64,000 nt of DNA from Bacteroidota bacterium (GTDB taxonomy: Bacteria; Bacteroidota; Bacteroidia; UKL13-3): assembly GCA_947485745.1 (NCBI GenBank), contig CANKQY010000001.1, positions 742-64,741 of the forward strand, written 5' to 3'. A model generated the notes under the pieces. The model was not told where the DNA came from. It made no database searches and was given only the letters and a program-made list of their open reading frames with translations. Shown in pieces: positions 21,296 to 60,844 of this stretch (the first letter of the stretch is position 1; the number at the start of each line of letters is the position of its first letter). Position numbers and translations under genes: made by a program.

Positions 21296-21496
21296 GGGCG
21301 AAAAATCTTTCGCCCTTTTGCCGACCCGAATATTGTTCTTGAGGGAGAGAGGATGTTTTGCCTCAAATGGTTGAGGGCGAAAGATTTTTCGCCCGTACAT
21401 GTGATTGCCCGGGGAATTTGCGTGAGGGCGAAAGATTTTTCGCCCTTACATGAGATTGCCCAGGGAATTTGCGTAGGGGCGAAAAATATTTCGCCC
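21296..21496. repeat. Array of four 20-bp perfect hairpin palindromes (GGGCGAAAnnnnTTTCGCCC); the last three on a 51-bp tandem period
   Basis: Units at 21296-21315, 21375-21394, 21426-21445 and 21477-21496. The intervening ~30-bp segments are near-identical (gtacatgtgattgcccggggaatttgcgt / ttacatgagattgcccagggaatttgcgt). Unit 1 is followed by TTTTG and sits immediately after the stop of the upstream lipoprotein gene, so it probably doubles as its terminator. Confidence 0.75.
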
Positions 21497-22216
21497 TTAC
21501 AGGGACATTGTTTCTTTGAATTTTACGGCTTGGCGGCGGCTGACTTCGATTTTGCTGCCGTCTTTCATGTAAAACAAAAATCCGGAATTGAAGAATGGCT
21601 CAATCCTATCAAGGTAATTGAGGTTGATGATTTGCTGGCGATTGGCCCTAAAGAAAATTTGGTCGCTCAATCTCTCATCTAAAGAGTTAAGCGTCCGGTG
21701 GATGAGGGGTTGGTATTTATCGAAATATATTTTGGCATAATTTCCGGCAGATTCAATCATTTTTATCTCATCCAATTTAATGTACCAACAACGGTCCCCA
21801 TCTCTGATAAAAACCTTTTCATCTGGCAATAATCTTGCTCTGAGTTTTTCTAATCGCAGCTCATCAATTTGTTTCTTTGCTTTTAAGATGGCTTCACCTA
21901 ACCTGTCCTTTTGAATGGGTTTGAGTAAATAATCTAATGCATTTACCTCAAAAGCTTTGATGGCAAATTCATCGTAAGCAGTGGTAAAAATAACAGCTGG
22001 TGTTTCAATTAAATCTTCCAATAAATCGAACCCCGTTTTTTCTGGCATTTGTATATCGAGGAAAATCAACTGAGGCTTCAATTTATCAATCATATCTAAG
22101 GCTTCATCAACATTGGAAGCCTCACCAACAATTTGTATGTCTGTATATTCTTTTAACAGATTTTTTAATCCTTCGCGAGCCAAACGCTCATCATCAACTA
22201 GAATGGTTTGTATCAT
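21497..22216 (-). CDS. LytTR-family two-component response regulator
   Basis: A receiver domain (ILVDDE…FLDIQMP) is followed by a LytTR DNA-binding domain. It overlaps the upstream kinase gene by 4 bp. Confidence 0.9.
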   Translation of the reverse strand: MIQTILVDDERLAREGLKNLLKEYTDIQIVGEASNVDEALDMIDKLKPQLIFLDIQMPEKTGFDLLEDLIETPAVIFTTAYDEFAIKAFEVNALDYLLKPIQKDRLGEAILKAKKQIDELRLEKLRARLLPDEKVFIRDGDRCWYIKLDEIKMIESAGNYAKIYFDKYQPLIHRTLNSLDERLSDQIFFRANRQQIINLNYLDRIEPFFNSGFLFYMKDGSKIEVSRRQAVKFKETMSL

Positions 22217-25924: not shown

Positions 25925-28900
25925 TTATTTACTTTCTACGATACGTTTTACAACTGTTTCGCCATCAACGGTAATTCTTACTAAATACATTCCTGCGGCA
26001 AATCCATGTTCTTTTGCGCCAAAAGTATAAGCGTGATTTCCTGCCGATAATTGTTTTTCTTCTAAAACTTCAACCAATACTCCTAAAGTACTTACTACTT
26101 CAATGCGTACAAATGAATTGCTATTTAATCCCAATTGAATATTTGTAAAATCAGTGTATGGGTTTGGAGCAATGCTCACTTGATTGATGGCTTGGTATAA
26201 GTTTAAGCCAGTAGGTATAAAGCTCAATGAATCTGACAATACAGATGCACAACCTGCTGCATTGGTTACTTTTACATTATAACTACCTTTTGTGGTTGCT
26301 GTATAATTTCTGGCTGTTGCACCATTGATGATACCTCCATTTAAATACCATTGGTAGTTGCTTTCAAGACTAGAGGTTAATACATCGCCACTTCTTGATA
26401 TACTTGGCTTGGCAGGTATTGGATTTACAATTACCCCAACCGCTGATGAATTAGCAGAGCAAGCAAAAGTATCTGTTACCATAACCGTGAAGTTACCGGT
26501 TTCTTTAGCAGTATATTTTGAAGCATTTGCTCCGTTAATTGCTACACCAGACTTACTCCATTGGTAGCTAAATGTGCTAGAGTTGCTAGCGTTTAATACC
26601 ACGCTATCACCATCACAAAAACTGTTTGAACCAACGTATGTTACAGCAACTATTGGACTTGTACAAACACCTGTTCCTTGAATAGCAAATGAGTACGTTG
26701 GCTCATCAAAATCGTTGCTAGTTAATACTAAGGTAGCGTTTCTATTACCCGAAGCTTTAGGAGTGAATCTAACAATGACACTTAAAGTACTATTTCCATT
26801 CACATTAGCTGGCATAGTGCTTGGAGATACGATACTAAACTCACTTGCATTTACACCTGTAATTTCAATGTTTTTAATTGTTAAATTTCCATTAGCTATA
26901 TTCTCAACTATAAACGTTTTAGTTTCGCTGCTTCCAGTTGCTGCAATACCAAATTGGGTGTTAACATTTGGAGTAGTTAATCCGTTTGGAATATTTACAC
27001 TGTTGGATTTTACATTGATTTCTGGATTGGCATTATAAGTATCAGGATTGTACAATGATAAAATTTGTCCGCCTTCTACTTGCTCGCCACCTACTCCGTA
27101 ATGTGCTTGATCAACCATTAAAAACATACCTGCTCCTAAGATTGATTGCATGTCTATGATACCCGATGCTTCTTCATCTTGCGTTAAAAAGTTGGGAGCA
27201 CCTGCTACAAATCTTGTTGAATCATGAACTGCAATAACTTTCACAGCATCTGTTGCTATGTTATACTGCCAAATTCTTGATAAGTAACTTTGGTTACCTG
27301 GATCTTCTTGCAACAAGATGTTTCCATAATTATCTATGGTCATGTTGTCCATCATCTTTGGACCTTCAGTTCCATCTAATACTGCGGTGATAGTTCCGCC
27401 TAATTCTGGAGTTTTGATGTCAGACATGCGCAATCTCCATAAACGACTTGGCGCTGTGAATGAATTGGTAGTTACAAAATAGAAATCGTTTGGATTACTT
27501 GGATCCCAATGACCATCTTCTGGACGTAAGAAATTAGTTACACCTAAGGCATTACTCTTTGCATTTAATGCTGCACCTGATGAGTCTCTTACGATACCCA
27601 AATCTACCATGGTAAAGGCTGTATTGGCAGCAGGAATTGAAGCACTAATTTCTGCTGTTAAACCTGCAACTGCTACACCATATAAACGACCATTGCTTAA
27701 ACCAGCTTTCTCAATTTCTGTTCCTGTATTGGTTTTGTTTCCTATGTAGAAATAAACCTGACCTGGAGTGGCATCATCTGTACCCACAACAATTGTTTTG
27801 TTTTGAGCAACTGGTGAGGCAATTGAATTCTCCCATGAGAATTTTCCTAAGTAAGGCAATTCATAAGTAGTTCCAGCATTTACTCCTGATACTATATTTG
27901 CAAAAGCCCTACCTTCAGCTCCAGCTTCTTCACCATTCATGAAAATTCTTTCTTGTGTTCCTAATCCAGTTGTTGCATTATAAAATGCGCTTACAGCGGG
28001 CAAATCAGATGAACAAAAACGATTGAATGCTTTCTTGCTTGAAGTATCAGCAGGATTGTATAAGGTGTAACCTGTGCCATTCCATAAATTAACTTTTTGG
28101 ATCAAATCTGAACCACTTACTACGCTTAAATTTGATTTGTTGATTACCCATTTAGAAACAAATGCACCCTTAGCACCGTGTGCTCTGTTTACACCTAAAG
28201 TATTACCAAACTCATGACTTACTAAAAAGGTAAAAGTACCGTTACCATTGTCGTAAGCACCTGTACCATCCGGCGTTCCAGCCATCATGTAATTTCCTAC
28301 TTTATCGCCAGCAGTTAATATGGCAGTAGTTCTTACTCCTGGAGCAACTGGCAGTAAATACGGTGATTGTGAACTGCTTGGTCCAGAATTTGGTATAATT
28401 AAACCTTCTTGTCTAGTGTTCAAGAGTTGAATTCTAAAATCACCTTTTAAATTAGTATCTCTAACATTGAATGGATTTGAAGTAAATTTAGTAGCCATGT
28501 ATTCTGCAAAGGCATCTTGCTCTTTACCAATAGTAGTAAATGTTGCTACGCCTGGTACTTTTATGGCAGTATCCAAATTTACCCTAAAATTTGTATTAGC
28601 AGGGAAAGGATAATTATCTCCACCATTTGCTAAGAAATCTAACGTAACAATTTTGTAAGTGCGAGTAGTATCTCCAAACAATTTACCTTCTTTGGCAATG
28701 GTATCTATTTTATTACCTAAAGAATCAATAATAACCAAAGATTGAATTCTGTTTCCAACTACTTTAGTAGTATCATAACTAAAAGCAACACCACCCACTT
28801 GAGGAAACTGACCAGGTGTAGCACCAGGAATGGTTGCAGAAATGCCATGCTCTAATAGTCTTTTTAACCCAGCAGCATTGGTTCTAACAATTGACAAACC

Positions 28901-34167: not shown

Positions 34168-35838
34168 TTATGCCAATTCTTTTTCGAGCTTTAATTCCCC
34201 GGCAAATGTGGCTTTTCTTGTGCCAGAATACTGCATCACAACCACATTTGGTTCAGGCAATATTTGATTGGTTTTAATAAAATGGCCTAGATTAAAACTA
34301 ATAGGTAGTACAATAAACCTGTATAAATGTTGGTTCAATTTGAGCTCCGAAATTGCTTGTGATTTAAGTGTTCTATCTACCTCTTCCAAAAACATAGTTT
34401 TAGGTTTTACTTTAAAATGCAAGTAATAATCAATGGCTATCAACTCCTGCAAATATTCGTCGTTAGGGTATTTATGCAAACAAAATGAGGCCAATAATTC
34501 AAAGCTTTCATCTAAAGTATGTTTGTGAAAATGGCTTCGCTGGCTGAACCAATCTCCTAATTCAGAAAAGAATTGAAACATGCCACCTAAGGTTTCTACA
34601 TAAAGCATGGTGTGTATTGCACGCTTTTTATTCCAATACAACTCCATTGCTTCTTCCAACATGGTTACTTGTATCAATTCATCCTTACTCAAATAGTTAC
34701 TCTCAATTATTTGGTAAGGCGGATTTGGGTCGAACCGAAAACCATATTGCTCATATTTTTCGCGCACCGGTGTGCCTTTTAAGAACTTTAAGAAGCCCAA
34801 TTGCAGCTCTGGTGGATGCAGTGCAAATACTTGCTCAAAGCTATAGGCAATGTCGTCTATGTAATCCAATGGCAAGCCAACGATTAAGTCGAGGTGCATT
34901 TCTAAATAATCTTGCAATTGCAAAATAACTCCTTTTGTCTTTTCAAAATTCTGCTTCCTGCTTACCTCCAAATTGGCTTTTTGATTGACCGTTTGTATGC
35001 CAATCTCAAAGCGAAACAAGCCTTTGGGGACTTTCTCTTGTATAAACTTAATGATATCGGGATGCACAATATCAGCAGTGATTTCAAATTGAAAAACATT
35101 ACCAGGTTTGTGGTGATCCAAAATAAATTGGAAGATATCGAGTGTGAAATCCTTTTTAACATTAAAGGTCCTATCTAAAAATTTGATCACCTTTCCATGC
35201 TCCATTAAGAACAACAAATTTTCTTTGATAGTTGCTGTGGGCAGGTAACGTACTTTGTTGTCTAAACTCGCTAAACAAAACTCACATTTATACGGGCAAC
35301 CCCTGGAGGTTTCCATATAGCTTACTTTGTTTTTTATCGCATCGGTTGGTTCAAACAGGTATGGGTTGAAACCTTCCAAAGTATTGATATCAAAACTTTC
35401 GGCAGAAGGGGTGTATTTTACTTTTCCATCTTGCTTATAAACCAAATTGCCAATGCTTGATACATTTGGATAGTGATTTAAAAAATCAGCAAAAGGAATT
35501 TCACCTTCACCAGCAATGATAAAATCTACTTCTGGCAACTTTATAACATCATTCCAATCATAGCTCACTTCTGGTCCGCCGAGCAAAATTTTAATACCCG
35601 GATTTATCTCTTTTAAAAGTCTTGCTACAGCTAATGTTTGGGTAATGTTCCATATATAGCAACTGAAAGCCACTACTTCATAGTCCTTGCATGCCTTGGC
35701 AATTTCTTTGGGGTCTTCCTTTATGGCAAATTCCTTCCAATCGAGCCCTTCATGTTTTTGGTTCAAACCGTAAAGAATACGAATGGCCAAATTCATGTGA
35801 ATATATTTGGCATTGAGCGTAGTTAACAAAATGCGCAT
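34168..35838 (-). CDS. B12-binding-domain radical SAM protein (DUF4080-like)
   Basis: An N-terminal B12-binding-like region and radical-SAM cysteine motif CPYKCEFC (CxxxCxxC) in a 556-aa product. It shares one base with the upstream glycosyltransferase gene. Confidence 0.8.
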   Translation of the reverse strand: MRILLTTLNAKYIHMNLAIRILYGLNQKHEGLDWKEFAIKEDPKEIAKACKDYEVVAFSCYIWNITQTLAVARLLKEINPGIKILLGGPEVSYDWNDVIKLPEVDFIIAGEGEIPFADFLNHYPNVSSIGNLVYKQDGKVKYTPSAESFDINTLEGFNPYLFEPTDAIKNKVSYMETSRGCPYKCEFCLASLDNKVRYLPTATIKENLLFLMEHGKVIKFLDRTFNVKKDFTLDIFQFILDHHKPGNVFQFEITADIVHPDIIKFIQEKVPKGLFRFEIGIQTVNQKANLEVSRKQNFEKTKGVILQLQDYLEMHLDLIVGLPLDYIDDIAYSFEQVFALHPPELQLGFLKFLKGTPVREKYEQYGFRFDPNPPYQIIESNYLSKDELIQVTMLEEAMELYWNKKRAIHTMLYVETLGGMFQFFSELGDWFSQRSHFHKHTLDESFELLASFCLHKYPNDEYLQELIAIDYYLHFKVKPKTMFLEEVDRTLKSQAISELKLNQHLYRFIVLPISFNLGHFIKTNQILPEPNVVVMQYSGTRKATFAGELKLEKELA

Positions 35839-37046
35839 TATGAGTTTGGACTTAATTGGCGGTAAAAATCTAGTTTCTTTTGTATAAGCACCTTGTTGTC
35901 GTAATTTAACCTCACCAAATTGGTTGCATTGTTTCCAATCCGTTCAATTTCGCTTATATTTTTAAGAAGGTATTCTATTTTCTCTTTAAACTCATCGGCT
36001 GTATTGGCAATGAGAATATGCTCGCCATCAACAGCGTTTATACCTTGCGCACCAAGACTTGTAGACACAATGCACTTACCCAAAGCCATGCCTTCCATAA
36101 TTTTAACTCTGATACCGCTACCCGAAAATAATGGAACAACCATGATTGCCTTTTCGTTCATGAGTTGCATGGCACTGTCTATTTCACCGAGAATTCTGAT
36201 ATTGTTTTGGTTATTGTAATCATAAAATTCTACAGGAAAATTTCGGCCTGCCAAATAGAAATGTAAAGTTGGGTAATCCAATGAAATATCTGCCCAAACC
36301 TCTTGTATGAACCAATTCATGGCCTCTTGATTTGGCAACCAATCCATGGAACCTAGGTGAAAGAGGCTAGGCATTTCTAGGTTTTCATTGTTAATGATTA
36401 ACTTTTCTGTGTTTACCCCAAAAGGGAAAATGCCTACAGGAATTTTGCAATTATCAGTACACATGGTATCAAAATCTGTTTGCGTAAAAACTGTTATTCC
36501 ATCAAATTGGTTCAGCATAGAAAGCTCGTATTTTTTTAACCTCAAAGCCAACAACCTAAGATAAGAGTGTTTAATAATATTACCTTGATGTTGCGCTAAA
36601 TTTTCCCAAATTTTATACTCTATGTTGTGCTGGCGTAAAACACAAGGAGCTTTGCTATTTGCGCGAATGGCGGCTAAATAGGGAGCAACAAAAATACTTT
36701 CAAAAACTATGACATCAAATTCTTTGGACTTGCAAATATCAATGAGTTGCTTTTCAAATTCGTCGCTAATAAACCTATCCACATGATAAGAGCGCTTGCT
36801 AAATAGGTTTAATAAGGCATCTTTCGCTTTGATCCTATTGTCGATATAGGTTAAATGAATATCTGCCATAGCCTTTACCTGCTCTGGCAAAGTATCGTAA
36901 TCAATAAAATGCTTTTCGGTATTTAGGGCAGCCATAGTAAGCTCAACACCAGCTTCTTGGTAACCTTTACTTTCATTGAAATTTGCCAATGCCCCACCGT
37001 CTTTAAGGGGCCAGGGGAAGCGATTAAATATTTGAAGGATTTTCAT
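35838..37046 (-). CDS. Family-4 (GT-B) glycosyltransferase
   Basis: The true start is MKILQIFNRF… (ATG at 37044-37046). The 43 codons upstream in the ORF track (…PFPFSFSFSFPFFPFSF…) are a translation of the CT-rich simple sequence repeat. The C-terminal half matches GT4 (…EGMALGKCIVSTSLGAQGI…). Confidence 0.8.
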   Translation of the reverse strand: MKILQIFNRFPWPLKDGGALANFNESKGYQEAGVELTMAALNTEKHFIDYDTLPEQVKAMADIHLTYIDNRIKAKDALLNLFSKRSYHVDRFISDEFEKQLIDICKSKEFDVIVFESIFVAPYLAAIRANSKAPCVLRQHNIEYKIWENLAQHQGNIIKHSYLRLLALRLKKYELSMLNQFDGITVFTQTDFDTMCTDNCKIPVGIFPFGVNTEKLIINNENLEMPSLFHLGSMDWLPNQEAMNWFIQEVWADISLDYPTLHFYLAGRNFPVEFYDYNNQNNIRILGEIDSAMQLMNEKAIMVVPLFSGSGIRVKIMEGMALGKCIVSTSLGAQGINAVDGEHILIANTADEFKEKIEYLLKNISEIERIGNNATNLVRLNYDNKVLIQKKLDFYRQLSPNS

Positions 37047-37053
37047 TGATGAA

Positions 37054-37131
37054 GCAAAGAAAGTGAAAAGGAAGGAGAAAGGGAAGAAAGGGAAGGAGAA
37101 AGAGAAGGAGAAAGGGAAAGGGATGGGGAGA
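37054..37131. repeat. Homopurine/homopyrimidine hexanucleotide simple sequence repeat (minus strand approximately (CTTTCT/CCTTCT)12)
   Basis: A 78-bp tract of G and A only on the plus strand, immediately upstream of the glycosyltransferase ATG. Read directly. Confidence 0.85.
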
Positions 37132-37174
37132 TTTTTTGGACTAATTGGCTGCGCGAGGGTGTTAGGCGGGGTCA

Positions 37175-37435
37175 CTCCTGCTCTAGCTGACTATCAGGCA
37201 AGAGAATTTTAAGCTCGGTGCGTCTATTAAGTTGGTGCTCTTCCTCCGTGCAATCAACGCCATTGGAACAATGATTTATAAGACGGGTTTCGCCGTATCC
37301 TTTGGCTATAATTTTGTCTTTTGGAATGCCTTTGGCTATAATATATTTCACACAACTGTTTGAACGACGTTGGGATAATTTAATATTATACTCATCACTT
37401 TCTCTGCTATCGGTGTGGGACGATAATTCAACTAA
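37175..37435 (-). pseudogene. Remnant of an OmpA/MotB-family C-terminal domain (87 codons, no start codon, no N-terminal part)
   Basis: Manual translation of the minus strand gives …ELSSHTDSRESDEYNIKLSQRRSNSCVKYIIAKGIPKDKIIAKGYGETRLINHCSNGVDCTEEEHQLNRRTELKILLPDSQLEQE*. This is a classic OmpA-like peptidoglycan-binding motif. An in-frame TGA lies 3 codons upstream and only AT-rich non-coding DNA lies beyond it. Confidence 0.6.
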
Positions 37436-37624
37436 TCAAAATTGAATCATTTTTTTCATGTTTTGTTGTTTTATTTTTTCTTAGTATTAGTTTAGGATAG
37501 TGTAATTTTATGAAATAGGTAAAGCGGAGCCGAAGCAGAATAAATATAATAACTATTGCAAAAATGTAGCTATCATTAAAATGGCTATTGATGTATTGAA
37601 ATAGTACTTAATCATTTTTGCACT

Positions 37625-39061
37625 TTGATTTTTTTGTTTTCTCTTGCAAAGCCACAAATTGGAAGTTTAGATAATACCTTTGGTATTGTAACAACAAATG
37701 GTGGTATGAAAACATGTCTGCAGGATAGAAGCAATGCTACCGCCATTCAAAGTGATGGTAAAATTGTGGTAGCAGGCACAAGCAATGATAAATATGCTTT
37801 AATTCGTTATAATACCAATGGCAGCTTAGATGCGACTTTTGGGATTGGTGGAATTGTGGCAACTGATATAGGTTATTCTATTAACTCCATAGCCATTCAA
37901 AGTGATGGTAAAATTGTGGCAGCTGGTCAAGGTTCCCCATTAATCCGCTTCAATACCAATGGAAGCTTCGATGCAACATTTGGTAATGGCGGGACTGCAA
38001 TTATTGGAGGCGACGCTATTGCCAATGCTATAACTATCCAAAATGATGGTAAAATAATTGTGGTATGTGAATCTCAGGGCAGTACATATATTTCTTTATT
38101 ACGTTTCACTGCCAACGGAACTTTAGACAGCTCATTTGGGTCCAATGGAATTGCAACTAAATCTGGTTTAGGTGGCCGCGCTTTAGCCATTCAAAGTGAC
38201 GGCAAAATTGCGGTGGCTGGGTTTATCGTGAAAGTTACCTCGACAGGAGGCACAGCTTATGAGTTTGCCTTAGTCCGTTATTATACCAATGGTAGTTTGG
38301 ATAGCACTTTTGGGACTGGCGGAATTGTTTCTTCAGATTTTGGTAGTTTTGCTATTGCTGAAGCTATAGCCATTCAAAGTAACGGTAAATTTTTGCTGGC
38401 TGGTGAGGGTTTTGTGTTGGCTCGTTATAATACCAACGGAAGTTTAGATAGCACTTTTGGTAATAATGGAATAGTAAATACAAATATTTCAGATGTAAAA
38501 AAAGTTAATTCCTTAGTTATTCAAAGTGATGGTAAAATTATAGCTGGGGGATATAGCATTCAGGGGTCTAATTTTGCTTTGAATTTGACCGTAGTCCGTT
38601 ATAAAATAAATGGCAGTTTAGACAGCACTTTTGGTAATACGGGAATTGTCTCAACTCCAGTTGGCAATCATAATACTGATCTTCATTCTATTAAAAGTGC
38701 GCTTGCCATTCAAACTGATGGTAAAATTATTATAGCGGGTTTTAGCGCATTTAACAATAACTACGATTTTGCTTTAGTTCGTTATCACAATGATAATACA
38801 TTAGGAATGAACGTAATAGGAAATCAAAATACAAAAATAAACATTTATCCCAACCCCACCCAAAATCAAATCAATATTAATGTTCCTGTAAAATCACTCG
38901 GTTCAAATTATTCAGTTAATGACTTTACAGGAAAAGTAGTACTTGAAGGAAAAATAGATTCAGAAAACACAACAGTTGAATTGGCTCATTTACCCTCAGG
39001 CATTTATTTTTTGCGTGTTGGAGAAAATTTGAAACAAACATTTAAAGTGATAAAAGAATAA
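37625..39061 (+). CDS. Delta-60-repeat protein with T9SS type-A CTD, apparently 5'-truncated (TTG start, no signal peptide)
   Basis: Repeated …LD.TFG.GG…AIQSDGKI..AG…ALxRYNTNGSLD… units. C-terminus …INIYPNPTQNQININVP…GIYFLRVGENLKQTFKVIKE. The first codon is TTG, no upstream in-frame ATG precedes the stop at 37589, and the N-terminus MIFLFSLAKPQIGS is not a signal peptide. Confidence 0.6.
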   Translation: MIFLFSLAKPQIGSLDNTFGIVTTNGGMKTCLQDRSNATAIQSDGKIVVAGTSNDKYALIRYNTNGSLDATFGIGGIVATDIGYSINSIAIQSDGKIVAAGQGSPLIRFNTNGSFDATFGNGGTAIIGGDAIANAITIQNDGKIIVVCESQGSTYISLLRFTANGTLDSSFGSNGIATKSGLGGRALAIQSDGKIAVAGFIVKVTSTGGTAYEFALVRYYTNGSLDSTFGTGGIVSSDFGSFAIAEAIAIQSNGKFLLAGEGFVLARYNTNGSLDSTFGNNGIVNTNISDVKKVNSLVIQSDGKIIAGGYSIQGSNFALNLTVVRYKINGSLDSTFGNTGIVSTPVGNHNTDLHSIKSALAIQTDGKIIIAGFSAFNNNYDFALVRYHNDNTLGMNVIGNQNTKINIYPNPTQNQININVPVKSLGSNYSVNDFTGKVVLEGKIDSENTTVELAHLPSGIYFLRVGENLKQTFKVIKE

Positions 39062-39282
39062 AACAGTGTATTTATAATATTTTCAGTATAAAATGTAAAG
39101 AATCCTTTAAATAATTTGCTCACCAAAGACTTTATTAACGCCAGCTAGTGCTTTCATTAGTGATTCGTATTTGGAGTTTGGATTGCAAAAAAGTGAAATC
39201 TGCTTTTGCTCACTTGAAACGAAATCCATCAACATAACTCCTGCTCCCCTCGTTCGCCAAAGCCCTGGCGTAGAAGAACTTT

Positions 39283-39362
39283 CTCCTTCTCTTTCTCTTT
39301 CTCCTTCTCTTTCTCTTTCCCTTTCTCTTTCTCTTTCTCTTTCTCTTTCTCCTTCTCCTCGC
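39283..39362. repeat. Hexanucleotide simple sequence repeat, approximately (TCTCTT)13, inverted relative to the tract at 37054-37131
   Basis: ctttctccttctctttctctttctccttctctttctctttccctttctctttctctttctctttctctttctccttctcc: pyrimidines only on the plus strand. Confidence 0.85.
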
Positions 39363-39441
39363 GGCGCTAACGACCCGCTTTTGAATTCATGCTTAAAATT
39401 TTTAATCTTTAAGGCTTGTGGTTTATTTCTTGAATTGTATT

Positions 39442-40074
39442 TTAATCTATTAGATAATACTGCTCGTCATTTACGAAATTTTCATATTGAATTATTCCAT
39501 GAGCGGCATTAAAGTATATTCTATAGCGTTTAGCAGCTGTATTTGGGTATGTAATTACCCAACCAATTCCATAGTTCTTACCTCGACAAATAATGGAATC
39601 GGATTGCGAATTACCTGCCGCTACTGAAGAACCGAAATCATAAAAGTCGAAATTATCGTTATTAAAGGATATTTTCAAATTGGTAAAATCCCTATCACCA
39701 TCATATAAATTCGGAGCGTAATTACCCTCAATTTTAATCAAGTCGATTCTTCTAACATCCCTTGAATTTTTGAAAGTATAGTATTTATACTGAGTAAATT
39801 CACTCGACGTGCATTTTGATTCCAGGTCTTTAATCTCCTCCTTTAAAAAAAAATATGGCGAATCGGCTGTGAATGCAACAGAGTCAATAAAAAGACCCTT
39901 ATAATAATGCACGTAATTACTAACTTTACCTTTTTCTATCTGAAAGTAGTCCGCAACTCCAGGCTTAATTATTTTATACGTAATTCTACGACTACAATCT
40001 CGGTTGCAAGCAAATAATCCTGTAAGCAAGAATAATGCTAAAATTCGCCATTTAAAGTCTTTACTACACACCAT
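39442..40074 (-). CDS. Hypothetical lipoprotein (210 aa)
   Basis: Signal/lipobox …LFLLTGLFACNRD and consistent codon usage. No recognisable domain. Confidence 0.45.
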   Translation of the reverse strand: MVCSKDFKWRILALFLLTGLFACNRDCSRRITYKIIKPGVADYFQIEKGKVSNYVHYYKGLFIDSVAFTADSPYFFLKEEIKDLESKCTSSEFTQYKYYTFKNSRDVRRIDLIKIEGNYAPNLYDGDRDFTNLKISFNNDNFDFYDFGSSVAAGNSQSDSIICRGKNYGIGWVITYPNTAAKRYRIYFNAAHGIIQYENFVNDEQYYLID

Positions 40075-40117: not shown

Positions 40118-40306
40118 TTATCTTTTATTTTCTTGCTTTTGTTTCAATGCAGCCTTTTTTACATTGTACCATGCATAAAAGTTATATCCTACTCCAACTA
40201 ATGAAATAATACCACCAATCAAAATTACTTCAGGATTTAAAAAACTTGCACTAATAACGGCAAAAGTTGCACCACCTACTGAATAAGTAGAGATGTAGTT
40301 TAGCAA
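40118..40306 (-). CDS. Possible small two-TM membrane protein (62 aa)
   Basis: Two hydrophobic helices (GGATFAVISASFL…ILIGGIISLVGVGYNFYAW) and a basic C-terminus. A short ORF, so it may be spurious. Confidence 0.3.
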   Translation of the reverse strand: MLNYISTYSVGGATFAVISASFLNPEVILIGGIISLVGVGYNFYAWYNVKKAALKQKQENKR

Positions 40307-40409
40307 AGACTTACGTTTTTACTACTTTCAGTACTTTTGAATTAATTGGTGGAATTAGTTTTAAATTTTAAATTGACCTATAAGTGAGTCATAAACTAAT
40401 TTAATTTTA

Positions 40410-43400
40410 CTACCTTATGATTTGAATTTTCTTACTTGTAATTTCACGTCCTTGATTGATAAACCTCAGTAAATATAAGCCAGTAGCTAAATCATTTGTT
40501 TCAATAGTTGCCAAACCTTTTGCCGCTGATAATTTACCGCTAAAGAGAGTTTGACCATTTAAACCAAATAGCTCAAACTGAATTTCTATTTGCTTTTGCA
40601 ATTCATAATCTATGAAAATTTTTTCATTAGCTGGTATAGGAAATATTTTCAATGATTTAAAGTCATCTTGCTCAATAAGAGTAGCACTTACGCCAGTAAT
40701 TACATTTAAACTGCTTTGACTAAAACCGCAATTATTAATTGCTTTCACCCCTAAGGTGGCGTTTTGGCTCCCTGTTAATACCATGATTGAATTGGTATTC
40801 TCACCTCCTAATAATAACCAGTCGCTCGGGATATTCCAGACATAACTATTTGCGTTGCTGGCAGCTATGCTATAATTTCTGCTGGTGTTTGCTTTAATAT
40901 ATTTTTCTCCTGCAATTCCTCCTAAAAATTGCGGCAGTCTACTAACTGTCATTCCCAAGCTTAAACTAGAGTCACTCTCGCATCCTTCATTTTTACCGCG
41001 CACCGTTACATTCCCATTACTTGATCCCACTTTTACTTGTATGGTTTGTAAAGTTGAATTACCTATAAAACTCCAATCACTTGGCAATTGCCATACATAA
41101 GAACTTGCACCAATCAGCGTATTTGAACTGAGGGTAATGGAACTTAATTCACAAGCAGGCTGACTGCTTGGCGTAATGCTTTGTGGCTTCGAGGCCTGAG
41201 TATAACTATTAAAAATAGACAAACTGCTAAACGAACTTCTACAGCCGCCTTGTATGCTTTGAACCTGCATGGTTCCTGTATTGCTGTTAGGTATAACATT
41301 AATGGAAGTGGTATTTTGACCAGAACTGATATTCCATCCTATTGGCACTGTCCAAGTATAACCTGTTGCTCCGCTTACTGCAGCAATGCTATAGGTTTTT
41401 GAAACTCCTACACAAAACGCATTATCTCCTGTGATGGCTAGGGGTGTGCTAGGTATGGAAGTAGATATGGAAGATATATTCAAAATCCGCTCTGCTCCCA
41501 CACAACCATTGGTGCTGGTGGCTTTTACGCTTATGTTTCCGCCAACTCCACTTGTTGGCCTAATTAATATACTCGTATCTGTGCTTATTCCATTACTCGG
41601 ACTCATGTCCCAGCCATTTGGAGCCGTCCAGGTATAACTTAAAGCATTTAAAACTTTATTAACCCTAAACGTTTCATATTGACTGCTGCATCCTTGCGTT
41701 AAGCCAGATACAATAGGCTGAACAGGCTTTGCTTGCACGTTTATAAAACGCTTGGTTTGAACCGAACTACATCCACTTGAACCTATCGCTACAACCCGTA
41801 AGGTATCTGCTACTCCATTAAACGTTAACCCAATGCTATTACTGCTCGAACTACCACTCCAACCAGAAGGGAATGTCCAACTATAAGAACTCGCATTGGT
41901 GGCAGAGACGCTATAAGTTTGGGTTGCGCCTTCACAGGTATTCACATTGCCCGTTATACTACCCGATATTTGTGGGGAAGCATTTACCGTTATTGATTGT
42001 GTTCGCACCGTACTAGTGCAGCCTGGGTTTGTGGCTTGAACACTTAAAATGAAATTACCAGCATTATTGCCAACAGTGGTACTTATGTTATTGGTATTAT
42101 TGGCCCCATTAAAACTCCATCCCGAAGGCAAAGTCCATAGATAAGCTGAAGCATTGGCAACGGTGGATACACCAAAATTCTGTTGACTATTTGCACAAAA
42201 AGATGAGGCACCTGTTACAGCTCCGGGTTGACTAACTTGCGCATAAATGGCAATTGGCAATTGTGCTACCGCACTGCTGCATATGCCATTTACACCACGC
42301 ACGCTCATATTTCCACTGCCAATGGTTGAACCAACAGTTGCGTTAATATTATTAGTTGTTGAACTACCTGTTAAACCGCTTGGTAAGGTCCAAATATAAC
42401 TGGCAGCACCGCTAATTGTTGGCACACTGTAGATTACTGCATTACCCACACATACATCAGAACTGCCGCTTATATTTCCAATTGTTCCAAAAGAGATTAC
42501 TGAAATAGACCTAGTGGCTGCGCTTGTGGTATCTCCACAACTATTATACGCCTTAACACTGATAGTTCCAGAGGTATTTGCATTTACTATAATTGTGGTG
42601 GTATTTTGCCCGCTAACGATAACCCAACCTAATGGTAACGTCCACCAATAACCTGCTGCATTAACCGTGCTTGAGCTCAATGAAAAAGTATAGGTGCTAT
42701 TTTGGCAATAGGTGGTTGCAGGATTATTTATTGTGCCTATGGTTCCCAAGGTACCAGTAGGAATACATTCTTGAAACTTTATTAGGAAAGCATCATCACT
42801 TCCCCCATTCACAGTTTGATGACTACCTGAAGTGGATAAACTATTTGAACCTAGTGAGTTGCCTGCCAAGTAAATACTTCCACTTACGTCTTTGCCAACA
42901 GCATAACCATAATCCGACCCAATACCTCCATAAAAAGTACCCCATTGCCTTACCCCATTCGTATTAAATTTGACTAAAAAAGCATCTCTACCGCCTGCAT
43001 TAGTAAGCTGATAACCAGAAGTAGTAGCAATATTGTTATCACTGCCAGTATTTCCAGCTAGGTATATATTTCCATTGGCTTCGCAATAAACAGAGAATAC
43101 ATCTTCATAATCGTTACCTCCATAATAGGTGGCCCATTGTCGCACCCCATTTGTATTAAATTTAACCAAATATGCGTCAACTCCACCGCCATAAATAACT
43201 TGATGAGTTCCAGCTGAGGAGATATTGCTCATACCGTTGGTAACTCCAGCTAGGTATATATTTCCAGAGGCATCAGTACATATATTTCTAGCTACATCTA
43301 AGGAGTTTCCTCCATAAAATGTGCCCCATTGCCGCACACCATTGGTATTGAATTTAACCAAGAAACCATCTTCTCCGCCGCCATTTCCGGTCTGATAAGT

Positions 43401-44930
43401 GCCCGAAGTGGATATATTATCAACACTTATCGTAGAACTAGCTAAATATATATTCCCATTGGCATCAGTACATATCGAAGAACCATATGCAGATTCACGG
43501 TCACTTCCACCATAATAAGTAGCCCATAGCCTTGAACCATTAGTATTAAATTTAACTAAGAATGCATCATTATTTCCGGCTAAATTGGTTTGATGGCTGC
43601 CAGTAGTTGAAATATTATTACTGCTATTGGTTTGACCAGAAAGGTAGATATTTCCAGTGACATCTATACACAGAGAATAGCCAAAATCATAGCTAATACC
43701 TCCATAATATGTTCCCCATTGCCTTACCCCGTTGGTGTTAAATTTAACAAAAAATGCATCATAATTACCTCCCGAACTTGCTTGATGACTGGCGGTGGTG
43801 GCAATATTGTTGGTGCTTCCGGTACTACCGGCTAAATAAACATTTCCAGAGGCATCCGAACAAATAGATTCTCCACGAGAATTATCATTGCCTCCATAAT
43901 AAGTGCTCCATTGACTAACTCCACTAGTATTGAATTTAATTAAAAAAGCGTTTACTATACCCCCAATGGTAGATTGATGACTGCCAGATGAAGCTATATT
44001 ATTAGTACTTTGAGTATTCCCAGTTAAATAAACATTTCCACTGACATCCGAGCAAAGTGCCTTTCCCTCCTCTACATTACCCCCACCATAATACGTACCC
44101 CATAATCTAGTTGGATTTGGATCCACCACCAAATCAAATGAAGCAATCTGTGCTTGCGTTTTAAAACCAATGGTTTCTTTATCTAGCAAGGTATAATCTA
44201 CCTGTACGGTTTGGTTCAGACCGTTTTTAATGAGCCAACTGGCAGGTATGCTTTCTTTAAATTCTCCTCGGTTGGTATTAAATATTAATTCTTGTCCATT
44301 GGTTTTAAATGGAGCGCCTTTGTATTGAAGTTTAATATCAGAAAGCTGAGCGCCGGCATGCACTACAAAATTGTATTTAAAGCCTTTTTCGTTGAGTAAA
44401 TACTCAATGTCAATGCCGGGATAAATAGCTTTGTATGTTATTTTTTGGTATTGGTGTACCTCTAATATTCCATCGGATGCATGATCTACATTGTAATAAT
44501 TGGTATAATCGCTGCTTTTGCCTTCTGCAATGATTTGTGGGCTTGGGTTTGCACCTAGTAAGGTTATATCTATGCGGTGAAAGTGGTAAGTTACTTCTTC
44601 GGGTTCAATCTCTTTACCTGGTAATTTTTGTATGAGTTCAGCCATACCTAATAAGGCTTTGGTTTTTCTTTGGGTAGTAAAAATATCGTAGCTAAAACCC
44701 GTTTTTCTCAGATGCACATTTAAGCCATTGCCATTTAATAAATACAATACTGCCGAGTTAGACTTTCTATATTGATCAATTACCTGACCCTTGTTTTCTA
44801 TAAATCCGGCAGATTTGCTTGTTGCTAATAAACTAGCTGGATCAACTTTAGCAAATAGCGGCAAACACCAAATACATTGGATAAAAATAAATGAAGCAAT
44901 AAACAATATTTTTCTCTGGGCTTTTTTCAT
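40410..44930 (-). CDS. SBBP-repeat / Ig-like-repeat secreted protein with T9SS type-A CTD (1506 aa)
   Basis: Signal peptide. Many FNTNGVRQW.TYYGG… SBBP-type repeats, repeated …Y.WT.PSGW… Ig/PKD-like modules, and C-terminus …LKIFPIPANEKIFIDYEL…GLYLLRFINQGREITSKKIQIIR. Confidence 0.85.
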   Translation of the reverse strand: MKKAQRKILFIASFIFIQCIWCLPLFAKVDPASLLATSKSAGFIENKGQVIDQYRKSNSAVLYLLNGNGLNVHLRKTGFSYDIFTTQRKTKALLGMAELIQKLPGKEIEPEEVTYHFHRIDITLLGANPSPQIIAEGKSSDYTNYYNVDHASDGILEVHQYQKITYKAIYPGIDIEYLLNEKGFKYNFVVHAGAQLSDIKLQYKGAPFKTNGQELIFNTNRGEFKESIPASWLIKNGLNQTVQVDYTLLDKETIGFKTQAQIASFDLVVDPNPTRLWGTYYGGGNVEEGKALCSDVSGNVYLTGNTQSTNNIASSGSHQSTIGGIVNAFLIKFNTSGVSQWSTYYGGNDNSRGESICSDASGNVYLAGSTGSTNNIATTASHQASSGGNYDAFFVKFNTNGVRQWGTYYGGISYDFGYSLCIDVTGNIYLSGQTNSSNNISTTGSHQTNLAGNNDAFLVKFNTNGSRLWATYYGGSDRESAYGSSICTDANGNIYLASSTISVDNISTSGTYQTGNGGGEDGFLVKFNTNGVRQWGTFYGGNSLDVARNICTDASGNIYLAGVTNGMSNISSAGTHQVIYGGGVDAYLVKFNTNGVRQWATYYGGNDYEDVFSVYCEANGNIYLAGNTGSDNNIATTSGYQLTNAGGRDAFLVKFNTNGVRQWGTFYGGIGSDYGYAVGKDVSGSIYLAGNSLGSNSLSTSGSHQTVNGGSDDAFLIKFQECIPTGTLGTIGTINNPATTYCQNSTYTFSLSSSTVNAAGYWWTLPLGWVIVSGQNTTTIIVNANTSGTISVKAYNSCGDTTSAATRSISVISFGTIGNISGSSDVCVGNAVIYSVPTISGAASYIWTLPSGLTGSSTTNNINATVGSTIGSGNMSVRGVNGICSSAVAQLPIAIYAQVSQPGAVTGASSFCANSQQNFGVSTVANASAYLWTLPSGWSFNGANNTNNISTTVGNNAGNFILSVQATNPGCTSTVRTQSITVNASPQISGSITGNVNTCEGATQTYSVSATNASSYSWTFPSGWSGSSSSNSIGLTFNGVADTLRVVAIGSSGCSSVQTKRFINVQAKPVQPIVSGLTQGCSSQYETFRVNKVLNALSYTWTAPNGWDMSPSNGISTDTSILIRPTSGVGGNISVKATSTNGCVGAERILNISSISTSIPSTPLAITGDNAFCVGVSKTYSIAAVSGATGYTWTVPIGWNISSGQNTTSINVIPNSNTGTMQVQSIQGGCRSSFSSLSIFNSYTQASKPQSITPSSQPACELSSITLSSNTLIGASSYVWQLPSDWSFIGNSTLQTIQVKVGSSNGNVTVRGKNEGCESDSSLSLGMTVSRLPQFLGGIAGEKYIKANTSRNYSIAASNANSYVWNIPSDWLLLGGENTNSIMVLTGSQNATLGVKAINNCGFSQSSLNVITGVSATLIEQDDFKSLKIFPIPANEKIFIDYELQKQIEIQFELFGLNGQTLFSGKLSAAKGLATIETNDLATGLYLLRFINQGREITSKKIQIIR

Positions 44931-45207
44931 GTGTTTAGCGGGAAATGCAAAGCTTTTATATTTCCTTTTTAAATAGTAATTTACTCAAAATTAGGTTTAG
45001 TTGATGTAATAAAAAAATTAATAATCATATAATTGTGTAAGTTGAAGGATTAAGAAATTAAGCAAAAAAGATATTTAACTTTTTTGATTCGTTGGACTAA
45101 TAAATCAGTCATCTAAGCAAAACCGAATTTGCTGTACCTATAGCTGTACCTACTATAAAAATAGTAAGATAAAATGCTTAAAATTAGGATTTTATAATAA
45201 CACATTG

Positions 45208-45279
45208 TGCACCTAAAGGGATTCGAACCCCCATCTTCAGAACCGGAATCTGAAATTCTATCCATTGAACTATAAGTGC
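45208..45279 (-). tRNA. tRNA-Arg (anticodon CCG)
   Basis: Manually folded cloverleaf: 7-bp acceptor stem (GCACTTA/TAGGTGC), D-stem GTTC/GAAT, anticodon stem TCAGA/TCTGA with loop TTCCGGT, T-arm GGGGG-TTCGAAT-CCCTT, discriminator A. Confidence 0.85.
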
Positions 45280-60546: not shown

Positions 60547-60684
60547 GGTGTGTTTTTGTATGTGTTTGAACCTACGAAGGTAGGGGAAAAAGTTGATAGT
60601 TGGGAGATGGCTGCTAGCTGCTGGCCTCTGGCTGCTGGCAATATATTATTAATACTTATAAATGTGCGTAATCCTGAGCATGCC

Positions 60685-60730
60685 GAAGTGCGGTCGCTGA
60701 GCCTGTCGAAGTGCGGTCGCTGAGCCTGTC
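60685..60730. repeat. Perfect 23-bp tandem direct repeat (GAAGTGCGGTCGCTGAGCCTGTC x2) within a GC-rich intergenic island
   Basis: Read directly. Preceded by GCTGCTRGC-type repeats (60601-60640) and a CCTAC-gaag-GTAGG hairpin (60573-60586). Confidence 0.8.
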
Positions 60731-60844
60731 GAAACGTTGTTCCAATGAGCAGAAATTTTGCTTGGAGGCAATTCGATAAATTGGAGGCAAGATTCAATTT
60801 TTGCCAATTTTTACTTAGCTTGCCAGCTGTTTATTATTTTTATC

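Follow-up and report, generated by a model that had tools for sequence, protein, structure and literature searches.

The locus

The DNA analysed here, a stretch of 64 000 nt termed the window, belongs to an uncultured freshwater Chitinophagales-like bacterium. Between a glycosyltransferase gene and a tRNA-Arg gene it carries two CT-rich hexanucleotide tracts (A and B) of opposite orientation, set among the following features.

35838..37046, minus strand: GT4-type glycosyltransferase gene, 402 aa (Pfam Glyco_trans_1_4, E = 2.5e-18)
37055..37062, minus strand: TTTCTTTG box, 8 nt upstream of the glycosyltransferase ATG (TTTCTTTG-N8-ATG), tract A lying immediately upstream of the box
37054–37131, minus strand: tract A, a hexanucleotide microsatellite, CT-rich and degenerate, with its pyrimidines on the strand of the glycosyltransferase gene and the plus strand rich in purine
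37132..37165: deletion scar, where ~1.27 kb that all close relatives retain has been lost, including a 430-aa helicase-associated-domain (HA) gene
~37172–37427, minus strand: remnant of an OmpA C-terminal domain, with no start codon for the full piece
37428..37661: AT-rich spacer, 88–92% identical to relatives, the homology stopping at 37662
37662..39061, plus strand: 5'-truncated delta-60 (DUF5122) beta-propeller gene with a T9SS C-terminal sorting domain (Pfam)
39062..39278: non-coding stretch unique to the window lineage, with no matches in the other loci
39246–39265: GC-rich 'head' CCCCTCGTTCGCCAAAGCCC at the end of the non-coding stretch, with a small hairpin at 39255–39270
39279–39360, plus strand: tract B, (CTTTCT)13, a pure pyrimidine run of 82 nt
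39361–39441, minus strand: native 3' flank (~80 nt) of the 210-aa gene, between tract B and that gene
39442–40074, minus strand: orphan 210-aa lipoprotein-like gene, its only known relative at 77% aa identity
40118..45206, minus strand: 62-aa ORF and 1506-aa DUF7948/T9SS gene, between tract B and the tRNA gene
45207..45279, minus strand: tRNA-Arg(CCG), which anchors the variable islet at its far end

Two inverted hexanucleotide tracts

A preliminary description of this DNA had claimed an inverted pair of hexanucleotide tracts, and the pair is real: low-complexity arms of 53 nt show 85% complementarity, the longest exact identity between A and B being 19 nt, and no other such tracts occur in the 64 kb. 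The next longest pure purine/pyrimidine (R/Y) run in the window is 16 nt, and in 300 shuffles the longest run averaged 16.4 nt and reached 28 nt at most. Further copies of either tract or of the GC-rich head were not found in the window. Tract A is degenerate, since Tandem Repeats Finder (period 6, 11.3 copies) gave only 69% matches; it has at most two perfect units in a row, and its core is a pure purine run of 59 nt on the plus strand (37065–37123). Tract B was scored as (CTTTCT)13.2 with 90% matches and contains five perfect consecutive units. It also forms a near-perfect mirror repeat (arms of 37 nt, three mismatches, 1-nt spacer); in tract A the search for mirror arms of at least 12 nt at no more than 10% mismatch gave none.

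Assembly error does not account for the tracts: both recur, identical to the window, in an independent ENA contig, and one Logan contig spans tract A with identical sequence; another Logan contig ends inside tract B. An Rfam search, at the gathering threshold over the whole window and at E <= 1 over 36900–39600, placed no RNA family at the tracts. The motif (CTTTCT)4 has more than 119 matches in viral contigs; among 119 of these, 94 lie inside long ORFs, 75 of which read it on the purine strand, where it would encode Lys/Glu/Arg-rich repeats, a different, coding phenomenon that we set aside.

The glycosyltransferase start region

The glycosyltransferase gene is the first of a conserved block, followed in order by a B12-binding radical SAM/DUF4080 gene and a thiamine pyrophosphokinase gene, and this gene order is kept in ~80 genomes. 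Tract A was said to abut the glycosyltransferase start, and it does end 8 nt from the ATG (37046). The TTTCTTTG box and its 7–8-nt spacing are kept in loci L007, L008, L012, L014 and L086 and in all close relatives, and the letters between box and ATG diverge although the length is held. We suggest that the box is a putative -7 promoter element of the Bacteroidota type (consensus TAnnTTTG; PMC7366714), in which case a near-leaderless mRNA would be implied; upstream of the glycosyltransferase gene no canonical TAnnTTTG was found other than the TTTCTTTG variant. A scan for sigma-70 promoters and intrinsic terminators, which is uninformative for Bacteroidota, found no intrinsic-terminator-like site within 36900–39600.

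The possibility that tract A encodes an N-terminal extension of the glycosyltransferase was rejected, the MKILQIF start and the box being conserved family-wide. A pyrimidine-only tract has a stop codon in no frame, and glycosyltransferase gene calls of 441–448 aa with a long N-terminal extension are artefacts of this stop-free tract. The upstream start that such an extension would use is out of frame in the L006/L130 lineage, as is the ORF reading through tract A in the L006 lineage, and in the window it is deleted. CT-rich proto-repeats occur upstream of the same glycosyltransferase gene in the more distant loci L011 and L014; a purine-rich tract upstream of the L010 glycosyltransferase gene is unrelated and encodes a K/E-rich protein.

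Gene remnants and flanks

Of the HA gene, ~8 degenerate terminal codons are left in the scar (37132..37165), and the right breakpoint of its deletion is at most ~15 nt away from tract A, measured to the distal edge. The relatives' gene product carries the HA domain (Pfam, E = 6.6e-68); the window holds no HA homologue elsewhere, and outside the clade the nearest homologues reach at most 32% identity. Both genes that do lie between the tracts proved to be the fragments they had been taken for. The OmpA piece covers only positions 62–92 of the 98 in the PF00691 profile, and the same start-less remnant is found in all close relatives. The mechanical delta-60 ORF (37625–39061) borrows its first 12 codons from the spacer, and from its own residue 13 onwards aligns at 78% identity to residues 271–732 of its closest homologue (P0004, 732 aa). 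Since this alignment begins at residue 271 of the homologue, ~270 N-terminal residues are missing, the signal peptide included. The 5' junction of the gene (nt 37661/2) coincides exactly with the end of homology to the relatives' spacer. Comparison with relatives had been proposed as a way of finding the two genes intact: a full-length delta-60 homologue does exist in the 732-aa protein, whereas the close relatives themselves have only the OmpA remnant and lack the delta-60 segment altogether. In annotation, both the OmpA piece and the delta-60 gene should be flagged as remnants.

The GC-rich head beside tract B has a match of 18 of 20 nt in the L006/L130/L131 lineage, in the sequence that lies upstream of tract A there (0 such matches expected by chance), and has no matches in viral contigs. 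A search near tract B for traces of the HA gene and of the islet genes of the relatives gave none. On its outer side, homology between the 210-aa gene region and its sole known relative ends exactly at the tract edge. The right flank of tract B resembles the glycosyltransferase 5' end at 16 of 19 nt, a score equalled by 4% of random window pieces; descent of the flank from that gene was rejected, since in locus L113 the 210-aa gene has this flank as its native 3' region.

The tracts in related genomes

Orthologues of tract A stand at the same site in L005, L006, L085 and L115–L136, as in all close relatives, and among 20 distinct related contigs from ~20 metagenomes we distinguish six alleles. 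Tract A lengths of 75, 84, 108 and 191 nt are represented. An inverted distal tract of ~30 nt, here called T2, abuts the 3' end of tRNA-Arg in the L085 and L005 lineages, beginning 6 nt past it; L130 has a degenerate T2 copy, parted from the tRNA gene. In the L085 and L005 lineages the block equivalent to 40118..45206 is absent between T2 and the tRNA gene, and in L130 it is partly present. Tract B would be the positional counterpart of T2, an orthology suggested by position, the inner flanks of the two not being alignable. Thus every lineage of the clade carries tract A together with an inverted distal tract (T2 or B). The proposed positional association of the tracts is upheld in that both of those in the 64 kb lie here and the relatives' tracts occur only at the same locus.

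The alleles of tract A differ between lineages largely by steps of 6, 12 or 24 nt. The distance from the HA-gene ATG to the TTTG box takes values of 127, 130, 151, 234 and 238 nt; compared with L005, the L085 allele is longer by 24 nt, added in exact hexamer register, and L131 equals L130 plus one CTCTTT unit within the tract. Pure pyrimidine runs of 55–80 nt are kept in all lineages with tract A despite sequence change. Within a lineage, in contigs that are metagenome consensus sequences masking minority length variants or isomers, with several samples from the same lakes or time series, a single tract A allele was shared by 10 of 10 distinct contigs in one lineage and by 5 of 5 in a second, the contigs coming from different metagenomes. 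The distal tract was likewise identical in seven contigs, one more having a single substitution. An exact-protein look-up for strain variants of the window itself recovered the same sample alone. The 6-, 12- and 24-nt steps between lineages are of the type expected from replication slippage, which the preliminary description had put forward; within lineages the tracts are static.

Breakpoints at the tract edges

Gene content between tRNA-Arg and the glycosyltransferase gene differs from one lineage to the next in all those examined. Five or more events of independent origin, which are deletions, replacements or insertions, have an end no farther than ~15 nt from a tract edge, four tract edges being involved. 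At the distal edge of tract A these are the HA-gene deletion of the window, a 26-nt deletion of the head (L005/L085) and 45-nt tandem duplications (L006). At the outer edge of T2/B, one of three neighbours is found (the tRNA gene, a 23S_rRNA_IVP gene or the 210-aa gene), homology ending within ~2 nt of the tract. On the inner side of tract B, the truncated delta-60 gene replaces the WYL-regulator operon of the relatives. Not all islet breakpoints are at tracts, examples elsewhere being those at 37662, at 40275 and at a 1.9-kb acyltransferase indel (~10 nt of alignment overlap at the junction). The locus had been called a rearrangement hotspot, and a hypervariable interval with several breakpoints at tract edges and two remnant genes between the tracts justifies the term.

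Interpretation

We suggest, and would give this about even chances of being right, that A and B are old, degenerate homopurine/homopyrimidine microsatellites born of slippage, which act as fragile borders of a small flexible islet. The islet lies between tRNA-Arg and the glycosyltransferase/radical SAM/thiamine pyrophosphokinase block, with the tracts inverted at its two edges; the tracts would be passive fragile or recombinogenic sites that concentrate illegitimate recombination at the islet borders. Slipped-strand DNA, polymerase stalling and, for tract B, H-DNA are candidate mechanisms. Tract A may have arisen from CT-rich sequence beside the -7-like box (TTTCTTTG) of the glycosyltransferase gene, and could now form the upstream half of the glycosyltransferase promoter region with no role as an on/off switch. 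A causal role of the tracts in rearrangement is what their position alone would suggest. We also observe that an intergenic edge of an accessory islet beside a tRNA gene tolerates breakpoints anyway, which speaks against fragile-site causality.

With respect to H-DNA, triplex motifs and H-DNA-forming mirror repeats have been tied to bacterial genome instability and linked to rearranged loci (PMC4666352; see also PMC11667243). In sequence the tracts resemble them, being homopurine/homopyrimidine, with B a near-perfect mirror, and they lie at a locus rearranged among close relatives. The motif described in bacteria is a G/C-rich intrastrand element with many copies per genome (PMC4666352), whereas here two or three AT-rich hexamer tracts occupy one locus and A is without mirror symmetry. 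The earlier proposal that the tracts favour H-DNA is plausible for tract B, given its 37-nt mirror arms, and not for tract A, so that H-DNA cannot explain the events at the tract A edge.

Alternatively, the tracts may be passive scars, i.e. neutral microsatellites that persist in dispensable islet-edge DNA or were made at repair junctions, with no function and no promotion of rearrangement; we regard this as unlikely, though likelier than the other alternatives. The tracts are degenerate (A with its two perfect units in a row at most) and static within lineages, T2 decays in L130 once apart from the tRNA gene, and the other islet breakpoints are distant from the tracts. Against neutral persistence stand the five or more breakpoints within ~15 nt of four tract edges and the retention of the 55–80-nt pyrimidine runs in all lineages with tract A.

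It is also conceivable, but in our judgement quite doubtful, that the inverted tracts are functional boundary elements of a 'tract-bounded' islet, serving either as orientation-dependent Rho-loading or R-loop terminators, by which core genes (the glycosyltransferase promoter, tRNA-Arg) would be insulated against transcription of genes newly gained, or as preferred sites at which cassettes enter and leave by a recombinase-independent mechanism; this would be compatible with an inverted pair kept despite different cargo and with the near-nucleotide-precise breakpoints at the tract edges. One form of this idea, to which we assign a low probability, holds that the CU tract in transcripts leaving the islet resembles a Rho loading (rut) site and that entering transcripts would be GA-rich and R-loop-prone. 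On this view the tracts would keep read-through transcription away from the glycosyltransferase promoter, from the tRNA and from the 210-aa gene, which is convergent. Artificial polypyrimidine Rho terminators were reportedly described by Guerin et al. in 1998. Natural rut sites are 60–90 nt long, richer in C than in G and unstructured (PMC6144790; PMC12360218), and the composition expected of them (at least 60–80 nt, C-rich, G-poor, unstructured, with spaced YC dimers; PMC6144790) is that of the predicted RNAs of tracts B and A. In particular, every tract is oriented so that RNA leaving the islet is a G-free, C-rich, unstructured CU tract: the outward strand of B has 82 nt with 0 G, 33 C and 32 YC dimers, that of A 78 nt with 1 G and 35 C, and the CU tract is unpaired in the predicted fold. 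Tract B, convergent with the 210-aa gene, comes 217 nt after the point where the truncated delta-60 gene stops, T2 follows the WYL-regulator operon and is convergent with the tRNA gene, and the lack of an intrinsic-terminator-like site in 36900–39600 fits as well. The likeness thus extends to ~80 nt of predicted G-free, C-rich, unstructured RNA with many YC dimers in an untranslated, post-gene position. Unlike natural rut sites, however, the tracts are microsatellites, T2 measures only ~30 nt, and in relatives tract A stands between divergent genes, where no terminator is needed. Moreover, Bacteroidota Rho has N-terminal insertions and possibly altered specificity, and the small hairpins beside T2 and B are not conserved between lineages.

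Could the tracts be the terminal inverted repeats of a mobile or cassette-exchange element, the islet having been inserted or exchanged as a CT-tract-bounded unit? We consider this highly improbable. An inverted tract pair does bound a variable segment with different cargo in three lineages, and the GC-rich head, which the window has beside B and the L006 lineage beside A, implies that the two ends share ancestry or exchanged sequence; acquisition of the HA gene is suggested by its identity of no more than 32% outside the clade. As in tRNA-linked islets, hypervariable accessory genes (toxin–antitoxin, WYL-regulator, AAA-ATPase, acyltransferase and T9SS-cargo) lie directly past the tRNA-Arg 3' end. 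Yet, unlike in tRNA-targeted islands, no integrase and no direct repeat of the tRNA 3' end were found. No transposase is present among the called genes either, and the search for a tRNA-derived att repeat found none, its best partial match (16 of 17 nt, within the DUF7948 gene) being at chance level. A target-site duplication is likewise absent, as A (…GATGAAGCAA) and B (GCGGCGCTAA…) have different sequences on their outer sides; no other copies lie in the 64 kb, and the ends are alike only as low-complexity sequence.

Invertible promoters of Bacteroides polysaccharide loci and the R64 shufflon are recombinase-driven invertible systems with inverted repeats. The preliminary description envisaged a switch of this kind, with homologous inversion changing what adjoins the glycosyltransferase promoter, and phase variation; we find this reading unsupported and already largely refuted, and hold it to be barely tenable, because tract lengths are constant within lineages, no inverted isomer was seen, no recombinase was found and exact arm identity is limited to 19 nt. 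What recommends it is that inverted repeats flank a segment beside a surface-glycan gene, and that the Logan contig ending inside B could mean heterogeneity. However, all 25 of 25 related loci, including 10 distinct contigs across both tracts, are fully collinear, none showing an inverted isomer, in which the ATG-proximal flank of the glycosyltransferase gene would be joined to TTCTTCTACGCCAGGGCTTTGG; the gene calls for 10 kb to each side, and those in the relatives' islets, include no recombinase. Unlike the known systems, the locus has low-complexity arms, one orientation only, and an interior of remnants with neither a promoter nor alternative gene ends. Further, tract A lies neither between start codon and ORF nor between promoter-like box and ATG, so that unit changes cannot shift the frame or alter the spacing, and tract B lies between two convergent 3' ends.

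Comparison with repeats known to govern expression leads in the same direction. Tetra- to hexanucleotide repeats form contingency loci in the lipopolysaccharide genes of Haemophilus influenzae (PMC2651432). Like these, the present locus has short-unit tandem repeats beside a glycosyltransferase gene and changes of length by whole units; in contrast, its tracts are degenerate, non-coding and upstream of a promoter-like box, with no frame or spacing altered, and their length is equal in all contigs of a lineage. In Mycoplasma gallisepticum, the copy number of (GAA)n at vlhA genes varies within and between strains and gates expression (at 12 copies; PMC6258824). Tract A is similarly a homopurine/homopyrimidine repeat with conserved flanks upstream of a (here putative) promoter, but differs in its 6-nt unit, its imperfect tract, the single gene concerned and the absence of variation within the lineages sampled.

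As this locus shows, the presence of a long purine/pyrimidine repeat next to a glycosyltransferase gene does not by itself make a contingency locus. Finally, returning to the preferred reading, in which old microsatellites form fragile islet borders, the locus could be followed over years, given that the same lineages recur in lake time-series metagenomes. If the link between tract edges and breakpoints is causal, it would illustrate from nature how microsatellites prone to non-B DNA can direct the turnover of genes where a flexible islet begins or ends.

Results

Two inverted repeat tracts border gene remnants

The features on which the analysis turns are the following; both tracts were read directly from 36700-39800, and their repeat parameters are from Tandem Repeats Finder.

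35838..37046, minus strand: GT4-type glycosyltransferase (GT) gene
37054-37131, plus strand purine-rich: tract A, period 6, 11.3 copies, 69% matches
37661/2: junction at the start of the delta-60 homology
39246-39265: GC-rich 20-nt stretch ('head') near tract B
39279-39360, plus strand pyrimidine: tract B, period 6, 13.2 copies, 90% matches, consensus CTTTCT
45207-45279: tRNA-Arg gene, whose interval to the GT gene we call the islet

Pure purine/pyrimidine runs extend over 59 nt in A (37065-37123) and over all 82 nt of B, while the third-longest run of the 64-kb window is 16 nt and the longest run in 300 shuffles of the window averaged 16.4 nt (maximum 28). A and B form the top inverted repeat of the window (arms 53 nt, 85% complementarity), with a longest exact common stretch of only 19 nt. 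Since a nearly identical ENA contig (ERZ27280226:k141_2388781) carries both tracts unchanged and an independent Logan contig spans A unchanged, the tracts are not assembly artefacts. A second Logan contig (L002), from the same run but independently assembled from k-mers, ends at 39330, 33 nt into B; the break may be due to varying tract length, or to nothing more than low complexity or low coverage. The window and the ENA contig differ at 13 positions, which fall within 26156-27352 and 38107-38456 and cluster in the delta-60 repeats and in the C-terminal part of the gene for a 2450-aa T9SS protein; strain microdiversity, or internal repeats collapsed during assembly, may account for them.

Tract A ends 8 nt from the GT ATG (37046), and downstream of the GT gene lie a B12-binding radical SAM/DUF4080 gene and then a thiamine pyrophosphokinase gene. 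Between the tracts are an OmpA C-terminal fragment covering only PF00691 profile positions 62-92 of 98, an AT-rich spacer and a delta-60/DUF5122 ORF with a T9SS sorting domain; B is flanked by two 3' ends, those of the truncated delta-60 gene and of a convergent orphan 210-aa gene. Residues 271-732 of the closest delta-60 homologue, P0004 (732 aa, 78% identity), align with residues 13-478 of the ORF and, because the alignment begins only at residue 271, the window gene has lost about 270 N-terminal residues, signal peptide included. The junction is the exact end of the spacer homology with related genomes, so the first 12 codons of the ORF are borrowed from the spacer. Both the two inverted CT hexanucleotide tracts (by repeat finding, run lengths and inverted-repeat search) and the gene remnants of the preliminary description are therefore confirmed.

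Tract A differs between lineages and is constant within them

A search with the radical SAM protein led to freshwater Bacteroidia/Chitinophagales-like MAGs, in which the CT tract upstream of the GT gene is kept by the species-level relatives L005 (96% amino-acid identity) and L006 (95%) and is absent from relatives at <=83% identity; a third locus, L085, was added by a metagenome scan. All three have a divergent 430-aa helicase-associated-domain (HA) gene (PF03457, E = 6.6e-68) between the OmpA remnant and tract A, which in the window is deleted save for about 8 degenerate terminal codons. Look-up of five members of the HA protein cluster (n=13) gave 22 further loci (L115-L136; ENA, JGI and Logan samples), and removal of duplicates (L085 = L117, L005 = L125, L006 = L132) left 20 distinct tract A contigs, half of which (10/20) also span the distal tract. 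These are consensus contigs, which hide minority variants, and several samples come from related time series. The HA protein (L005 1450-2742, L085 8549-9841; absent from the window) consists only of about five PF03457 domains, and its nearest homologues outside the clade (Cytophagales, a diatom) are <=32% identical; its gene diverges from the GT gene, and the shared promoter region holds tract A. Outside the L130 lineage, the radical SAM gene and the thiamine pyrophosphokinase gene are neighbours in all relatives; in that lineage (L130 2281-6310) three extra genes, for two T9SS-tail proteins and a DUF7948 protein, lie between them.

Tract A alleles, measured as the distance from the HA gene ATG to the TTTG box (five values)
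127 nt: 5 distinct contigs, L005 type
130 nt: 2 distinct contigs, L135 and L136
151 nt: 10 distinct contigs, one SNP apart, L085 type
234 nt: 2 distinct contigs, L006/L130
238 nt: 1 distinct contig, L131

The window, where the HA gene is missing, has the shortest tract A. The L085 allele is the L005 allele lengthened by 24 nt in exact hexamer register, and L131 has one additional CTCTTT unit within tract A relative to L130; these hexamer-step differences indicate that tract A has changed length by slippage-type steps, at a rate between lineages comparable to that of point substitution. Within each lineage its length is the same in every contig and every sample, and a contingency locus does not behave in this way. 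The L006 lineage has, in addition, a GC-rich head and 45-nt tandem duplications at the distal edge of the tract; relative to that head, L005 and L085 have the appearance of a 26-nt deletion. The duplications, of about 45 nt (…CTTCTCCAAGTCACCACATCTTCTTTCTCCA…), lie distal to tract A at L006 3790-3920 (= L132; also in L130 and L131), and the head measures 35 nt in L006, L130 and L131, the sister lineages being without it.

Tract A adjoins a putative promoter

GT orthologues down to about 65% identity (compared in L007, L008, L012, L014 and L086) retain a TTTCTTTG box, separated from the ATG by 7-8 bases that are not conserved. It fits the Bacteroidota -7 promoter element TAnnTTTG (PMC7366714), and a near-leaderless GT mRNA would be implied. 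Tract A starts at this box and runs upstream, and changes in its length can affect neither the box-ATG spacing nor any reading frame. Given that CT-rich sequence already occupies the tract A site in the more distant L014 (CTCTTCTCTTTCTC) and L011 ((CTCGCTT)n), the microsatellite plausibly grew out of promoter-proximal CTTTCT sequence. Extension of the GT gene through tract A (441-448-aa calls; 445-aa ORF) was rejected as an artefact of a stop-free, pyrimidine-only tract; in the L006/L130 lineage the upstream start is not in frame, and in the window it is deleted.

The distal tract and turnover of the islet

The L085 and L005 lineages have, from 6 nt past the 3' end of tRNA-Arg(CCG), a CT run of about 30 nt (T2) that is inverted relative to A. 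Seven distinct contigs share one T2 sequence, and an eighth (L119) departs from it by one substitution; in the L005 lineage the variant is 35 nt long. Since B is likewise distal and inverted, at the corresponding relative position, we treat it, on position only, as T2's counterpart, enlarged to 82 nt; no alignment could be made between the inner flanks of the two. The head by B matches the head by tract A of the L006 lineage at 18/20 nt (chance expectation 0, z-score 6), so the two ends are of common descent or sequence has passed between them. L130 has a degenerate T2 with an unchanged inner flank and a different outer neighbour: a 23S_rRNA_IVP-family gene, then sequence 96% identical to window 40275-41200, the block of a 62-aa ORF and a DUF7948 gene. 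Outward from B the window has the 210-aa gene, the 62-aa ORF, the DUF7948 gene and the tRNA. Just past T2, on the tRNA-Arg transcript strand (L085 6270-6330, L117 ~11640-11690), a 5-bp GC hairpin CCACG…CGTGG and the U-rich stretch after it are plausibly the tRNA-Arg terminator; L130, in which the tRNA is no longer next to T2, has a degenerate version.

The islet is hypervariable across lineages.

Content of the tRNA-Arg to GT interval
Window: truncated delta-60 gene, two orphan ORFs, DUF7948 gene
L085/L006: WYL/WCX regulator and small ORFs
L005 type: as L085/L006, plus acyltransferase and hexapeptide transferase
L010: HigBA-like pair, K/E-rich protein
L012: AAA-ATPase/DUF4143 gene, T9SS proteins

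Breakpoints gather at the tract edges. The right breakpoint of the HA deletion in the window lies <= ~15 nt from the distal edge of A, and the head deletion and tandem duplications fall within ~15 nt of the same edge; within the same distance, the outer edge of T2/B has three alternative neighbours and the cargo on the inner side of B has been replaced. In L113, the only homologue of the 210-aa gene, the alignment extends 95 nt beyond the stop and ends exactly at tract B, and the L130/L117 alignment stops within ~2 nt of the T2 end. Other islet breakpoints lie away from the tracts (37662, 40275 and a 1.9-kb acyltransferase indel), so the association is strong but not exclusive. The indel (L126 3151-5047 versus L117; acyltransferase and hexapeptide transferase) separates the L005 and L085 lineages, and an alignment overlap of ~10 nt at its junction suggests a microhomology-mediated event.

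Other repeats

The decamer GGTTYRAACC occurs 14 times in the window against 0.22 expected (100 shuffles, maximum 1), at 362, 4773, 6985, 15138, 22349, 25906, 35760, 41754, 46150, 46350, 47181, 47940, 55669 and 59278, mostly as GGTTCAAACC or GGTTTGAACC, often lengthened to TTGGTTCAAACCGA, in coding and non-coding DNA. In character it recalls HIP1 or uptake-signal-like sequences, and it seems to be a short quasi-palindrome over-represented across the genome. At 21290-21501, in a 37% GC genome, a GC-rich hairpin (GGGCGAAAGATTTTTCGCCC) is present four times; the copies partly form a 51-bp tandem repeat (2.5 copies, 91% matches) and constitute a REP-like intergenic element. A GC-rich 23-nt tandem repeat, CTGAGCCTGTCGAAGTGCGGTCG, occupies 60674-60733 (2.6 copies, 94% matches). 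Runs of (CTTTCT)4 or longer are not rare in environmental DNA, a viral contig scan having matched >119 contigs; long ORFs contain 94/119 of the matches, for the most part in the (AGAAAG)n reading, and we rejected these coding repeats as a different thing.

Discussion

The hypervariable interval and the breakpoints at tract edges support the rearrangement hotspot first proposed for this locus. A causal role of the tracts in rearrangement is inferred from position, and islet-border intergenic DNA is a place where breakpoints are tolerated anyway; that the tracts are purely passive microsatellites is an alternative that we think unlikely.

It is more doubtful that the tracts serve as boundary terminators or insulators of the islet. 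The outward-transcribed strand has no G and 33 C in the 82 nt of B, and 1 G and 35 C in the 78 nt of A, with more than 30 YC dimers in each tract, and is predicted to be unpaired; this agrees with the composition published for sites of Rho loading (60-90 nt, C>G, unstructured; PMC6144790, PMC12360218). Moreover, B and T2 both follow islet genes converging on an outside gene. However, tract A lies between divergent genes in the relatives, and T2 is short.

That the tracts are the ends of a mobile element is very improbable: gene calls over 10 kb on each side, in the window and in the relatives' islets alike, include no recombinase, integrase or transposase, the outer flanks of A and B differ and so show no target-site duplication, and no copy of the tRNA 3' end was found at the far islet border. 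Least probable of all is a switch, as the preliminary description had envisaged in proposing inversion, a shufflon or phase variation: no inverted block was found in 25 related loci, all entirely collinear with a reference, no recombinase was called within 10 kb, and the constancy of tract A within lineages, with no change of frame or box-ATG spacing, speaks against phase variation. Likeness to invertible switches is limited to the inverted arms. The locus also resembles SSR contingency loci and the (GAA)n tracts that precede the vlhA promoters of Mycoplasma gallisepticum (PMC6258824), but it lacks the position and the polymorphism by which such loci are defined.

The suggestion of H-DNA is plausible for one tract only: B is a near-perfect mirror repeat (arms 37 nt, 3 mismatches, spacer 1 nt) and hence a good candidate, whereas A has no comparable mirror symmetry. 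The best fit among known systems is with the homopurine/homopyrimidine mirror repeats and triplex motifs linked to rearranged bacterial loci (PMC4666352), from which this locus differs in motif type and copy number. Finally, as the likeliest account we suggest, with about even confidence, that the tracts are slippage-born and now nearly static purine/pyrimidine microsatellites, which mark the borders of a tRNA-linked flexible islet and are probably fragile sites there.
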